Below are positions 22,600 to 39,899 of a stretch of 44,341 bases of DNA, piece after piece. Location: the UHGV virus genome UHGV-0173462, one strand, 5' to 3'. Made by a program: the position numbers and the translations under genes. Position 1 is the stretch's first letter. The number at the start of each line of letters is the position of its first letter. This DNA comes from a virus. The notes under the pieces were generated by a model. The model saw only the letters and a program-made list of their open reading frames with translations. It was not told the DNA's origin and did not search any database.

Positions 22600-22921
22600 T
22601 CCATTAAATGAGTTTCCTCATACAATCGAATTAGGCTCAAGAGAGGTTGTAGGAGAGTATCCGCGTGAACAAGAGCGCTTTAAGAGCGAAAAAACAATAC
22701 AAGGATTTATGGATACGCCTACTTCATCTGAACAACTCAAGTTTCATCAAATGAACCAATCATACGACAGAAACCTATATACGCCGTACAGCCTGCCAAT
22801 AACTAACACAAACTTATTTAAATACAACGGTAAAACTTACGAAGTAGTAGGAGAACCTGTCGACCAAGGCGGACAACAAGAAATCAACTTAACAAGATTG
22901 AGAGAATGTCCTATTGGCTAA
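22592..22921 (+). CDS. Head-tail adaptor / head closure protein
   Basis: 109 aa; position and size. Confidence 0.6.
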   Translation: MFNPLNEFPHTIELGSREVVGEYPREQERFKSEKTIQGFMDTPTSSEQLKFHQMNQSYDRNLYTPYSLPITNTNLFKYNGKTYEVVGEPVDQGGQQEINLTRLRECPIG

Positions 22922-23150
22922 GGTTAAATACGGAAATTGGGATTTAGTTAAGGAACTTGAGGAGTTTGAAAAAGAAACGATTAGATGGGCTAAAAAAGGT
23001 ATAGCCAAGACAACAACAATTATTCACAATTCAATAGTTAGTAACATGCCTGTTGATACCGGTTATCTTAGAGAAAGTGTTTCTATGGACTTTAAGAAAG
23101 GCGGGTTAACAGGCGTTATTAATATTGGTAGTGAGTACGCGATAAAACGT
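22914..23150 (+). CDS. HK97 gp10-like tail-component protein, exon 1 (as an unspliced ORF it runs to 23180)
   Basis: MAKVKYGNWD...NMPVDTGYLRESVS matches the gp10-family motif aPvDTGnLR.S; ORF lacks the conserved C-terminal AQPF..PA motif, which is found 1 kb downstream. Confidence 0.6.
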
Positions 23151-23266
23151 ATGTCGCAATTACTGGCAACAGTAATTTAAAAATCGAGCAAAATCGGTGG
23201 AACTCTTTATATGTGTAGTTGTATATTGATTACGGTACAGGTATAATATACATGAGGTGATTATAT

Positions 23267-23938
23267 TTGAAACGTAATAATAAAGGTCAGTTTGTAAAAG
23301 GTATGAATATTAAAGATAAAACAAATGAGAGGCATGGAAGATTAAAAGTAATTGGAATATCAGATAAAAGGTCCGGCAGAAAAACTTATTGGAACTGCTT
23401 GTGTGATTGCGGTAATAAAGTGACTGTAAGAAGTGATTGTTTAGGTACTACTAAGTCGTGTGGTTGTTTAAAGAAAACGAAAGCACCGCTTAATCTAGGA
23501 AAAACTAATTTGCATGGTTTAACCCACCATCCAGTATATGGAAGATGGAATGCTATGATAAATAGATGCGAAAACCCTAACACGTTAGCTTATAAAAATT
23601 ACGGCGAACGTGGTATTAAAGTATGTGATGAATGGCACGACCTAAAAGAATTCATTCGCTGGAGTGAGGAAAATGGCTTTAACAATAAATTAACATTAGA
23701 AAGAATAGATGTTAATGGCAACTACGAACCATCAAACTGTAAATGGATCCCTATGAAAGAACAGTATTATAATAAACGCACTTCTGTTTATCACACATAT
23801 AATGGAGAAACAAAAACTACAATGCAATGGACTCATGAATTAAATATACCTTTACACAAAGTGTCAAAATACAAGAAAAACAATATACCTTTTGTAGATT
23901 TGATTAGAGAATATAAAGACAACACCGAGGTAACTTAA
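23267..23938 (+). CDS. HNH homing endonuclease (AP2/HNH_3-like), TTG start
   Basis: Zn-ribbon CLCDCGNKVTVRSDCLGTTKSCGC and LERIDVNGNYEPSNCKWIP (HNH/AP2-like); RBS TGAGGTGA; own promoter TTGTAT-17-TATAAT (23220-23248). Confidence 0.75.
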   Translation: MKRNNKGQFVKGMNIKDKTNERHGRLKVIGISDKRSGRKTYWNCLCDCGNKVTVRSDCLGTTKSCGCLKKTKAPLNLGKTNLHGLTHHPVYGRWNAMINRCENPNTLAYKNYGERGIKVCDEWHDLKEFIRWSEENGFNNKLTLERIDVNGNYEPSNCKWIPMKEQYYNKRTSVYHTYNGETKTTMQWTHELNIPLHKVSKYKKNNIPFVDLIREYKDNTEVT

Positions 23939-24009
23939 TAGATTGCGGAAGGCTATTAAGCACCGTAGAGCGTACCAGTTGAATAAATATAATACTGGCA
24001 AGAGTGTTC

Positions 24010-24035
24010 GACAACCAATAACGGTTGTCTTTTTT
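24010..24035 (+). terminator. Rho-independent terminator after HNH ORF (GACAACC-aataac-GGTTGTC + TTTTTT)
   Basis: Perfect 7-bp stem + T6. Confidence 0.6.
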
Positions 24036-24119
24036 ATTGGTTGAAAATGTACGCCGAACTTACAGGTGACTGTAAGAAGTAAAGGATAAAAAGCCTTTAC
24101 GATAACAAGATGATACGTG

Positions 24120-24296
24120 AATTACGGTACAGGGATATACGCAGTCGGTCCAGGTGGTAGTCGTGCAAAGAATATCCCGTGGCGTTACAAAGACGCAGAC
24201 GGACATTGGCACACAACTAAAGGGCAACATGCACAACCTTTTTGGGAACCAGCAATTGATGAAGGTAGAGCGTTTTTCAATAAGTATTTTTCATAA
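24120..24296 (+). CDS. HK97 gp10-like tail-component protein, exon 2 (58 codons, no own start/RBS)
   Basis: NYGTGIYAVGPGGSRAKNIPWRYKDADGHWHTTKGQHAQPFWEPAIDEGRAFFNKYFS* carries the gp10-family C-terminal motif AQPF..PA; same frame as exon 1; spliced product 137 aa. Confidence 0.5.
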   Translation, partial: NYGTGIYAVGPGGSRAKNIPWRYKDADGHWHTTKGQHAQPFWEPAIDEGRAFFNKYFS

Positions 24297-37751: not shown

Positions 37752-37865
37752 ATGGGATTACCTAGCCCTAAAAAAAGAAAACCTACTGCTTCGGAAGTTG
37801 CAGCATGGGCAAAAAGAATGATTGGCAGAAGAGTTGATGTAGATGGTTATTATGGCGCCCAGTGT
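37752..37865 (+). CDS. Tail-associated cell-wall hydrolase (CHAP + glucosaminidase), exon 1 (38 codons ending ...GAQC)
   Basis: MGLPSPKKRKPTASEVAAWAKRMIGRRVDVDGYYGAQC then in-frame stop 2 codons later; RBS TGAGGTGG; contains the CHAP catalytic Cys. Confidence 0.7.
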
Positions 37866-38111
37866 TGAATCTAGCACCTTTGATGAGTAATCATCATAGC
37901 AAACTCCTCTAATTCATGGGAACCCTAAACAAGTTATGTTGTAGGCAATCATGAGCGAAGCCTATAAATAGGAACGTGCAACGACTAGTCGAAAGACGTA
38001 CACTCAAGCGAGTGGAAACGGGGAGCAACCTAATAGGTTGATGATATAGTCTGAACATTCATAGAAATATGAAGAAGGTGACAAGTGGCGATTGTCATCG
38101 TAACAAAATTG
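37866..38111 (+). ncRNA. ORF-less group I intron (~246 nt; boundaries +/-2 nt) in the tail-lysin CHAP domain
   Basis: R-like GUGCAACGACUAGU (37974-37990) and S-like GAUAUAGUCU (38043-38053) P7 elements; GNRA hairpins TGATGA-GUAA-TCATCA (37881-37896) and TTCATA-GAAA-TATGAA (38058-38073); 5' exon ends in U, intron ends in G; removal restores GAQC|WDLPNY. Confidence 0.75.
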
Positions 38112-39899
38112 TGGGATTTACCAAACTACATTTTCAATAGATATTGGCATTTCAAAACAACAGGAAATGCGATTGCTATGGCGTGGTATAGATATCCTAA
38201 AGGGTTCAAATTCTATAGGAATACTAGAAACTTTGTTCCGAAACCTGGTGACATGGCAGTTTGGGGAAAGGGTTCCTTTAATAACGGTGTTGGTCACACA
38301 GCTGTTGTAATTGGTCCATCTACTAAAAGTTACTTCACTAGTGTGGATCAAAATTGGATTGGTGCAAATAGTTATACAGGCTCACCTGGCGCGAAAATTA
38401 AACATAGTTATAACGGTATAAGCGGATTTGTCAGACCTCCCTACCACGCAGAAACTAAGAAACCATCGAAACCAAGTAGTACACCGTCCAAACATTCTAA
38501 TGACAACGCTCCTAAAAACACAAAAGAACAAACAAAACCTATAACTAAAGAGATTACCAAAGTTTCCTATACATCATTCGCATACGATTTAGACGATGAT
38601 TTGGAATATATTTATCATTACATGGTTGAAGGACAAAAGTTGATAGGGAAGGTAAAAGGTATATATATCAAAGAGAGTACACATATGCGTTCTGTTGAAG
38701 AATTGTATTTACAACGTAATAAATATGTGAATGAAGATGAATACCCTCATGTATATATTGACCGTGAGCGTGTATGGACACCTAGACCTGATTCAGAAGA
38801 AGCACCAGAACATCCAGGTTGGCTTGTTATGGAAGTTTGCGGAGGACAAACGGATAGTAAACGCCAATTCATGCTCAATCAAATCAGAGCGTTAATCTAC
38901 GGCGTTTGGTTACTAAGTTGGAGTAAGGTAAAACTTTCTGAATCGTCAATCAAAGCAGATCCTAACATATGGCGTTCTATGAAAGATTTAATCAATTACG
39001 ACTTAATCAAAAATGGTATTCCTGATGAAAGTAAATATAAAGAAGTCGAGAAGAAAATTATCGGTTTATATTTGAAAAGAGATAAATTACTTACAGAAAC
39101 AATTACTACAACAACTACAAAGACAACGATAAAAATTAAACCTAAAACTTCGGTCGACAATCCTTCACAGAACGATAAGTCGACAGGCAAAACGACAAAC
39201 AGAACTTCAAATAAACCTCGTGTAGTTGTAGAGAAAAGTAAATATACTTTCCAACAAGCGCTTAATGCACAAATGGCTCATGGCATGCCTCAAAAATCTT
39301 ATAGTTGGGGTTGGGGCAATGCTTCTAGGTCACAAACAAGTAAGTATATGAATCCTAACACTATATGGAATAGTTCAACTCAACGCTATCAAATGCTAGA
39401 TTTAGGAAAATATCAAGGTATATCAGTAAGTAAGTTGAATAAGATACTTAAAGGTAAAGGCACTTTATCTGGACAAGGTAAAGCTTTTGCAGACGGTTGT
39501 AAGAAGTACAATGTAAATGAAATTTACTTAATCGCTCACGCTTTCTTAGAGAGTGGATATGGCCGTAGTAACTTTGCTAGTGGACGTTATGGTATCTACA
39601 ACTACTTTGGTATTGCAGCTTACGACAACAACCCTAACGCTTCTATAGCATACGCTAGACGTCAAGGGTGGACGAGTCCACGTAATGGTATTATAGGTGG
39701 CGCTAAGTTCGTTAGAAAACAATTCTTCAACAAAGGTAAAAACACATTATACAGAATGCGTTGGAACCCTAAAAACCCTGGACATATGCAATACGCTACT
39801 GCGATTGAATGGTGTAACTTCCAAGCTACAACTATTAGTAGCTTATACAAAAAAGTAGGTGCAAAAGGTATGTACTACATTAGAGATAAATATAGATAA
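38112..39899 (+). CDS. Tail-associated cell-wall hydrolase, exon 2 (rest of CHAP domain + C-terminal glucosaminidase domain)
   Basis: WDLPNYIFNRYW...GHTAVVIG (CHAP His) ... YLIAHAFLESGYGRS...YNYFGIAAYD (glucosaminidase). Confidence 0.8.
   Translation, partial: WDLPNYIFNRYWHFKTTGNAIAMAWYRYPKGFKFYRNTRNFVPKPGDMAVWGKGSFNNGVGHTAVVIGPSTKSYFTSVDQNWIGANSYTGSPGAKIKHSYNGISGFVRPPYHAETKKPSKPSSTPSKHSNDNAPKNTKEQTKPITKEITKVSYTSFAYDLDDDLEYIYHYMVEGQKLIGKVKGIYIKESTHMRSVEELYLQRNKYVNEDEYPHVYIDRERVWTPRPDSEEAPEHPGWLVMEVCGGQTDSKRQFMLNQIRALIYGVWLLSWSKVKLSESSIKADPNIWRSMKDLINYDLIKNGIPDESKYKEVEKKIIGLYLKRDKLLTETITTTTTKTTIKIKPKTSVDNPSQNDKSTGKTTNRTSNKPRVVVEKSKYTFQQALNAQMAHGMPQKSYSWGWGNASRSQTSKYMNPNTIWNSSTQRYQMLDLGKYQGISVSKLNKILKGKGTLSGQGKAFADGCKKYNVNEIYLIAHAFLESGYGRSNFASGRYGIYNYFGIAAYDNNPNASIAYARRQGWTSPRNGIIGGAKFVRKQFFNKGKNTLYRMRWNPKNPGHMQYATAIEWCNFQATTISSLYKKVGAKGMYYIRDKYR

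Follow-up and report, generated by a model that had tools for sequence, protein, structure and literature searches.

Cluster J mycobacteriophages reportedly carry group I introns in capsid and tail genes. In the staphylococcal phages 85 and G1, group I introns interrupt a late gene, that of the lysin, and occur sporadically among close relatives (PMC6507118). The gene for the endonuclease I-PfoP3I lies inside a phage group I intron (PMC3428280), and a recent description of phage intron endonucleases assigns DNA binding to CapR-like modules (PMC12350094). In the T4 td intron, a copy of the homing site overlaps the promoter of the endonuclease gene, is 15/20 identical to that site and underlies autorepression by I-TevI (PMC2988022). 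Here we describe a locus that invites comparison with these systems in the virus genome UHGV-0173462, a stretch of 44,341 nt (hereafter the window). At this locus 969 nt interrupt an HK97-gp10-like tail-completion gene, and the insert is very probably a mobile group I intron with an endonuclease gene of its own. The source phage, a siphophage of Staphylococcus epidermidis, belongs to the genus Rockefellervirus; vB_SepS_BE28 (hereafter BE28), a deposited S. epidermidis phage of human skin origin, has the same arrangement at 98.9% identity across the 2.2-kb region (BLAST).

An insertion in a tail-completion gene

The interrupted gene begins with an 88-aa open reading frame (ORF; 22914..23180) that scores 28.6 bits against the Pfam family HK97-gp10_like (PF04883; cutoff 21.4), in agreement with an initial annotation of the window made from its sequence alone. 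The gp10 frame resumes at about 24117 and continues to 24296, and the family C-terminal motif QHAQPFWEPAID is encoded in this segment (24117/24120..24296), where the same annotation had placed it. At the equivalent position phage PH15 has a single uninterrupted 137-aa gene, ph11, annotated as “HK97 gp10 family protein,” with the sequence …GCAGTGTACGTTAACTACGGTACAGGG… at the insertion site. PH15 is one of more than 20 intron-less Rockefellervirus genomes (CNPH82, IPLA5/7, E72 and others) whose flanks are 92-99% identical to the window and which are exactly 969 nt shorter. The Pfam score and full-length collinearity with ph11 both place the interrupted gene in the HK97-gp10-like family. The exons and the ends of the insert are as follows.

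22914..23143, + strand: exon 1 of the HK97-gp10-like tail-completion gene, in an SPP1 gp16.1-like position, collinear with PH15 ph11; its last base is U23143
23144..24112, + strand: very probable group I intron of 969 nt running from A23144 to G24112, from the exact 969-nt insertion relative to PH15 and core covariation
24113..24296, + strand: exon 2 of the gp10-like gene (…YVNYGTG…QHAQPFWEPAID…FS*), from the junction and the comparison of spliced proteins
23139..23157, + strand: P1 hairpin, exon GCGAU plus A23144 with UGUCGC (23152-57), 6 bp, from an unconstrained single-sequence fold and compensatory changes at a second insertion site
23147..23152, + strand: P10 5' strand ACGUAU, complementary to AUACGU at the head of exon 2 (24113-24118), 6 bp, by direct reading of the sequence

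Excision of 23144..24112 yields …EYAIYVNYGTG…, as compared with …EYAVYVNYGTG… in PH15. The exons would meet at GCGAU|AUACGU (…GAGTACGCGAT|ATACGTGAATTACGG… in the predicted spliced sequence), the protein segment across the junction being …SEYAIYVNYGTG…; the predicted tryptic peptide spanning it is GGLTGVINIGSEYAIYVNYGTGIYAVGPGGSR, and exon 2 would encode the C-terminus …EYAIKRMSQLLATVI. Close to its 5' end the insert carries a guide sequence, ACGUAUGUCGC (23147-57), complementary to both exon ends, which accounts for P1 and P10. Within P1 the unconstrained fold pairs U23143 with G23153, the wobble characteristic of a group I 5' splice site. At the other end the terminal G and the P10 pairing are also as in group I introns, and in 16/16 aligned relatives the last intron base is the counterpart of G24112 and follows immediately on a conserved GAUAACAA..G tail.

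A second insertion site provides an independent view of these pairings. In PG-2021_90 (L011 669-1671) and BE20 (L012 1-989) an intron lies 24 nt downstream in the gp10 gene, after …ACAGGGGT and before ATACGCAG…, with the junction …ACAGGGGU|AUACGCAG…. Its 3' core is ~90% identical to that of the window intron and its endonuclease is different (42% identity). Here P1 is formed by GGGGU with GUCCC, and P10, which covaries between the sites, by GUGUAU with AUACGC; these guide changes are compensatory to the new exons and therefore support the P1 and P10 pairings.

The occurrence of the insert is also informative. Among close Rockefellervirus relatives only two records, BE28 and PG-2021_93, carry it at this site, and it comes and goes among relatives that are >95% identical; such sporadic occurrence is typical of mobile introns. 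The exons differ from PH15 at 11 positions over 1186 nt, 6/11 of them within -6..+9 of the junction, a clustering that co-conversion from a donor could explain, as could selection for P1/P10 pairing or the two together.

The RNA core and its relatives

The structure of the core was derived from 16 aligned sequences, in which the ORF-filled P5 loop was swapped for an artificial GAAA, and was evaluated again in a larger alignment of the window plus 46 IMG/VR sequences that are mutually <85% identical (n = 47). From the 16 cores RNAalifold, unaided, returned P3, P4, P6, P7.1, P8, P9, and P9.1, with compensatory changes in 37/47 pairs; P7, which is pseudoknotted with P3, was added to this structure by hand. 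The full structure pairs 97.1% of cells in the 16 sequences, with 39/53 pairs compensatory (slid controls 33-42%; 0/500 shuffles equal), and 95.3% of cells in the 47 sequences, where 44/53 pairs are compensatory with 613 compensatory cells (slid controls 31-42% paired; 0/500 shuffles as high). In the window copy each of the 53 consensus pairs is canonical, and an unconstrained fold of the window sequence alone contains P1, P2, P4, P5, P7, P9, and P9.1. The conserved elements are listed below.

23158..23177, + strand: P2, 8 bp, GCAA tetraloop (single-sequence fold)
23184..23190, + strand: P3 5' strand, partner 24005-24011 (RNAalifold; 7/7 pairs compensatory in the 47 sequences)
23194..23199, + strand: P4 5' strand, partner 23923-23928 (RNAalifold and pair counts)
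23204..23211, + strand: P5 5' strand, partner 23912-23919, which lies within the 3'-terminal part of the endonuclease ORF (ORF-deleted construct, single-sequence fold)
23929..23964, + strand: P6, 23929-31 with 23962-64 and 23934-41 with 23953-60 (RNAalifold and pair counts)
23968..23974, + strand: P7 5' strand, G23968, bulged A23969 and GCGUA 23970-74, partner 24050-24055 (covariation)
23975..23998, + strand: P7.1 hairpin, 5 bp, conserved 14-nt loop UGAAUAAAUAUAAU (23980-93) (5/5 pairs compensatory)
24012..24043, + strand: P8, CAACC 24012-16 with GGUUG 24039-43, extendable to 10 bp (covariation)
24059..24076, + strand: P9, 7 bp, GUGA tetraloop (covariation and single-sequence fold)
24079..24100, + strand: P9.1, conserved loop GAUAAAAAGC (covariation and single-sequence fold)

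The strands follow one another as P3, P4, P5, P5', P4', P6, P7, P7.1, P3', P8, P7', P9, P9.1, with a P3/P7 pseudoknot, so that the covarying group I series P3-P4-P5-P6-P7-P3'-P8-P7'-P9 is complete. This order, the pseudoknot, an A-rich J3/4, GNRA loops capping P2 and P9, the U.G pair, the terminal G and P10 are group I features. The GNRA-capped hairpins at both ends had been recognized in the initial annotation, which had suspected a group I intron; the P7 strands it had failed to find are GCGUA (23970-74) and UACGC (24050-54). The outer pair of P7 covaries as G-C, A-U or C-G, followed by a bulged A or C and then by G23970-C24054, which lies beside the bulge at A23969, is invariant in 47/47 sequences and is at the level of sequence a candidate guanosine-binding pair.

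A terminator had been predicted at 24010-24035, and a scan does recover a hairpin at 24010-24029 with a T-run, but it sits within the ribozyme helix P8. The 7-bp hairpin GACAACC/GGUUGUC and its U-run (24010-24038; U-run 24030-24038) belong to a P8 insertion kept in all staphylococcal gp10 introns, and the hairpin and the long form of P8 are mutually exclusive; it may be a terminator of the endonuclease transcript or a plain extension of P8. A repeat shared by P2 and the P7.1 3' strand (23161-73, 23993-24005) was set aside, relatives not conserving it.

Introns with the same site and the same guide sequence are present in ROSA (S. aureus), IME1365_01 (S. haemolyticus) and PG-2021_93. Further afield, the Clostridioides difficile myophage phiCDKH02 (L004 871-2007) has a related intron, 74% identical over its 3' part with an endonuclease at 38% identity, in the same gp10 motif (EYA|xYVEFG) one nucleotide off in the codon alignment; the conceptually spliced protein reads …EYASYVEFGH…, whereas in the GenBank record of the phage only a shortened first exon and a “hypothetical protein” appear. 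Conceptual splicing restores a full-length gp10-like protein in both ROSA and phiCDKH02. The literature covered makes no mention of an intron in the gp10/tail-completion gene of these phages; Kwan et al. (2005), which deals with 27 S. aureus phages and could bear on the ROSA intron, falls outside that coverage.

Sensitive BLAST of the insert finds its non-coding parts at ~70-75% identity in unrelated phages. TerL genes are split in the Sextaecvirus phages SA2 and F1, in a C. perfringens phage and in crAss-like phages, and other relatives lie in a helicase and an ATPase gene of crAss-like phages, in a cyanophage DNA polymerase gene and just upstream of the tape-measure gene of an Arcanobacterium phage. 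Relatives are often ORF-less (the F1 TerL element is ~200 nt with no ORF) and then have a short P5 at the same position. A motif scan of IMG/VR yielded at least 120 contigs (L021-L140), with the full core found by nhmmer in all those listed. Some viral contigs bear paired copies, namely L070 (223-441, 6633-6870), L081 (2177-2383, 3468-3682) and L083 (26-313, 535-810); the spacing of ~220 nt in L083 suggests multiple introns in one gene.

The window also holds a second, unrelated group I intron at 37855-38074 (+), ~220 nt long and ORF-less, which matches the Rfam model RF00028 over its full length at 93.8 bits. It splits the endolysin gene, with exon 1 from ATG 37752 and the remainder from ~38075 to 39899.

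The putative intron endonuclease and its leader

The loop of P5 is filled by an endonuclease gene whose final 27 nt also form P5', P4' and the start of P6. The gene and the two elements of its leader are as follows.

23267..23938, + strand: intron endonuclease gene, 223 aa, TTG start, Shine-Dalgarno GAGGTGA (23254-60), stop codon in P6 (ORF, profile searches, Shine-Dalgarno energies)
23219..23247, + strand: putative promoter TTGTAT-17-TATAAT, its -10 (23242-47) conserved in all Staphylococcus gp10 introns and its -35 weak
23229..23245, + strand: copy of 3'-exon sequence, ATTACGGTACAGGTATA, a candidate operator, 16/17 identical to 24121-24137 and overlapping the promoter spacer and -10

As had been proposed, the gene is complete and has its own Shine-Dalgarno sequence; at -13.8 kcal/mol the pairing at TTG 23267 is the strongest of the region, and the N-terminus added by this start (…RNxKGQFxKG…) is conserved across the family. 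The BE28 record starts the CDS 36 nt later, at an internal ATG (23303 in the window; L002 1212) with a poor Shine-Dalgarno. The protein matches PHROG 374 (4.6e-70), a family labeled “HNH endonuclease,” the label being an annotation only, and scores 23.6 bits against the Pfam CapR-like zinc ribbon, below the cutoff of 24.2. Its fold resembles that of the HNH enzyme PacI only weakly, and NCBIfam and PDB sequence searches return nothing. More than 7900 homologs exist, nearly all labeled “hypothetical.” Among the invariant residues are four zinc-ribbon cysteines, H83, C101, C120, C158, R146, Y153, N157, Q166, and N169. An N-terminal CapR-like zinc ribbon followed by a variant ββα-metal-like domain, of HNH type, is plausible but unproven. 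A 15-nt exact direct repeat, GTGACTGTAAGAAGT, shared by the ORF (23420-34) and the P9 3' strand (24066-80), is kept at only 13/15 positions in PG-2021_93 and is probably a coincidence.

The sigma-70-like promoter of the initial annotation has a perfect -10, but its -35 matches at 3/6 positions only and the promoter does not pass a consensus scan; the region has no more promoter-like sites than chance would give. Across its spacer and -10 lies the copy of 3'-exon positions +9..+25. When the endonuclease leader is compared with 955 45-nt windows of the phage, the 3' exon is the best match and 0/500 shuffles do as well; the 5' exon offers the leader no comparable match. The copy recurs in PG-2021_93 (0/500 shuffles) and ROSA (p 0.004). 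In phiCDKH02 the leader sequence TAGGTAGAATATGGACATAGAA matches that phage's own, different exon, TATGTTGAATTTGGTCATAGAA, at 18/22 positions and overlaps the -35 of TGGACA-17-TATAAT, and two C. difficile-type IMG/VR relatives repeat an exon-matched copy. Each copy thus matches the exon of its own lineage and not that of the other. The copy is absent from the C. perfringens TerL intron and marginal in PT1-1 (p 0.05) and at the second site (p 0.04).

A homing-site-like sequence over a putative endonuclease promoter is the arrangement of I-TevI, and by analogy the copy may allow the endonuclease to repress its own gene. I-HmuI, which belongs to the same HNH nicking group as I-PfoP3I, recognizes mainly 3'-exon sequence; similar recognition here would fit the position of the copy. 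An alternative origin, said to go back to Loizos et al. in 1994, is that such a copy is a relic of the invasion of a target-like site by the endonuclease gene. As a partner at the RNA level, the region of the copy (23227-23250) has only a PVDTGY-coding part of exon 1 (23050-23075), with which it can form a moderate duplex of -16.8 kcal/mol.

These elements suggest how the locus could work. In the late pre-mRNA the guide would pair with the end of exon 1 and the start of exon 2, and the core, with its P3-P8 and P4-P6 domains and the P7 carrying the invariant G-C by the bulge, would catalyze two transesterifications, after which the ligated exons would be translated into the 137-aa protein. The 223-aa endonuclease would be expressed from the P5 loop with its own Shine-Dalgarno and probably its own promoter, and would cut or nick intron-less alleles near the site; repair would then copy the intron and a few flanking bases, and self-repression as in I-TevI could follow from the copy over the promoter.

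Alternative readings and known systems

What else could account for this arrangement? The initial annotation had itself raised the insertion of a free-standing endonuclease gene that leaves two separately expressed fragments, which might assemble post-translationally as described for mobE in Aeh1 nrdA. The locus is annotated in this way in BE28, whose GenBank record has one CDS for an 88-aa “tail completion” protein and another for a hypothetical protein of 59 aa; exon 2 has an in-frame GTG at 24117, and RF00028 is silent at the locus. However, this GTG, the only in-frame start of exon 2, has the weakest Shine-Dalgarno of the region (-3.2 kcal/mol, as compared with -6 to -13.8 kcal/mol for neighboring genes), and the downstream frame, described at first as having neither start nor ribosome-binding site, offers no independent start that could be used. 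The break would moreover fall within the conserved YVxYG motif, and a simple insertion would leave unexplained the ~300 nt of flanking non-coding RNA, with group I-like covariation across unrelated phages and in ORF-less copies, as well as the exon complementarity of P1 and P10 and its compensation at the second site. The covarying ribozyme and the weak start of exon 2 favor the intron, and two separate fragments are very unlikely. An intron of group I descent could also have lost splicing, the tail gene then being a pseudogene in a decaying prophage or complemented in trans. Splicing is read here from sequence, P8 contains the terminator-like hairpin, and an identical endonuclease protein is also found on bacterial-size contigs, so that prophage copies exist. 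Yet nothing is broken in the 53 core pairs, in P1 and P10 or at the terminal G, the exons contain no frameshift or stop and match those of functional phages at 99% identity, and BE28, which shares the arrangement, was deposited as a phage; such a loss is improbable.

A group I intron could finally have the ends first proposed for it, 23151..24119, which would give …YAIKR|NYGTG… and the cDNA junction …AAACGT|AATTACGG…. This pair likewise spans 969 nt, is preceded by U and ends in G, as does the corrected pair, and the insert length and 137-aa product derived from it stand and agree with the exact excess over PH15. It is nevertheless 7 nt off. Only 23144..24112, of the two candidate pairs, restores the conserved ...EYA(I/V)YVNYGTG...; the earlier pair turns YV into KR relative to PH15, ROSA and phiCDKH02, places U23150 in the P1 loop and P10 strand, outside any P1 U.G pair, and disagrees with all 16 aligned relatives, which terminate at the counterpart of G24112. 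This rules out the predicted junction peptide ...YAIKR|NYGTG... and leaves the boundaries behind it barely credible, whereas the family alignment that had been suggested as a check, made with the corrected ends, shows 136/137 residues of the spliced protein identical to PH15 ph11.

Several observations weigh against a mobile group I intron or against parts of this reading. A group I covariance scan, also suggested initially, gave no RF00028 match at E<=10 for the window element, and none was obtained at E<=1 for 7 relatives. Because the T4 td intron itself scores 40.3 bits, under the gathering score of 50, while the lysin-gene intron of the window is detected, this silence reflects the reach of the model and not an absence of group I structure; formal database membership is nonetheless lacking. 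(The sole Rfam match, RAGATH-12 within the endonuclease ORF, scores 23.7 bits where the gathering score is 75 and was taken as chance.) In its extra stem between P7 and P3', a trait of subgroup IA, the intron resembles that subgroup, but only one covarying stem is found there (23975-79 with 23994-98), a few relatives (PT1-1, TPWB06) having an additional insert inside the P7.1 loop. As IA2 is defined by P7.1 and P7.2 stems between the P7 5' strand and P3' (PMC3428280), and P7.1 here stands alone, IA2 was not assigned. Similarity to td was rejected as a guide to subgroup, the nhmmer family profile giving only a marginal match in P3-P5. Regarding the endonuclease, the HNH/AP2 typing was not borne out: a Pfam scan finds no HNH domain, there is no AP2 match at E<=1, and the HNH label comes from PHROG 374 only. 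Catalytic competence is unproven, and in a manual alignment the usual HH position reads ER, the first His apparently replaced. The terminator-like hairpin in P8 could in principle truncate the pre-mRNA. Lastly, the target copy was rejected as a family-wide feature, exceeding the 95th percentile of cross-comparisons in 3/20 ORF-bearing members, two of them C. difficile-type gp10.

The gp10 intron is an element of a familiar type that is unannotated in public records. In the records of BE28, ROSA, IME1365_01 and phiCDKH02 the tail-completion gene is cut short and the endonuclease stands as an orphan, and exon 2 is either an isolated fragment or missing altogether; the correct annotation would be a single spliced 137-aa protein. 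The family, with its IMG/VR contigs and crAss-like TerL members, is invisible to RF00028, so that phage surveys based on this model undercount, and the present alignment could seed a new Rfam-type model. The locus also offers natural experiments: the same intron RNA occurs at two sites separated by 24 nt, with the guide retargeted and the endonuclease different; phages of Staphylococcus and C. difficile are entered at one and the same conserved protein motif; and the target copy over the promoter changes with the exon. These bring the retargeting of introns and the self-regulation of their endonucleases within reach of testing in Gram-positive phages. A broader proposal can be put forward tentatively, as possible and not as probable. 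It combines a widespread, structurally distinct group I lineage missed by Rfam, marked by a single P7.1 with the near-invariant loop UGAAUAAAUAUAAU and by the conserved P9.1 loop GAUAAAAAGC and spread over phages of Firmicutes, Bacteroidota (crAss-like), cyanobacteria and actinobacteria, with a gp10-intron target copy that would be a working autorepression operator for a non-GIY-YIG endonuclease, exon-matched in the Staphylococcus and Clostridioides lineages. If true, I-TevI-style self-repression would be a convergent and general solution for intron-borne endonucleases.

Among the described systems, Aeh1 nrdA/mobE likewise has an endonuclease gene between the halves of an essential phage gene, but here that gene lies inside a conserved ribozyme and the downstream half lacks its own translation signals. 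Intron-borne nicking enzymes of the HNH type, I-PfoP3I for example, share the location within a phage group I intron; the present protein differs in the missing Pfam HNH match, the apparent replacement of the first motif His and the N-terminal CapR-like zinc ribbon. The staphylococcal lysin-gene introns also occupy late or structural siphophage genes sporadically among close relatives, although the one in the window is ORF-less and detected by RF00028, whereas the gp10 intron belongs to another family and bears an endonuclease gene. T4 td/I-TevI differs in having the ORF in P6a instead of P5, both P7.1 and P7.2 in place of one P7.1 with a conserved 14-nt loop, a GIY-YIG enzyme unrelated to the present endonuclease family, an RF00028 score of 40 bits where this element has none, and a host gene of nucleotide metabolism where this one is structural. 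Yet in both cases a phage protein gene is split by a group I intron with an endonuclease ORF in a peripheral loop, that of td being a homing endonuclease. The two introns have in common the 5' splice-site U.G, terminal G, P10, an extra P7-P3' stem and a GUGA loop on P9, and show weak sequence similarity in P3-P4-P5 (nhmmer E 0.003, 9-kb search). In both, a copy of the homing site or 3' exon lies over the endonuclease promoter (a putative one here), with 15/20 identity in td (PMC2988022) and 16/17 here.

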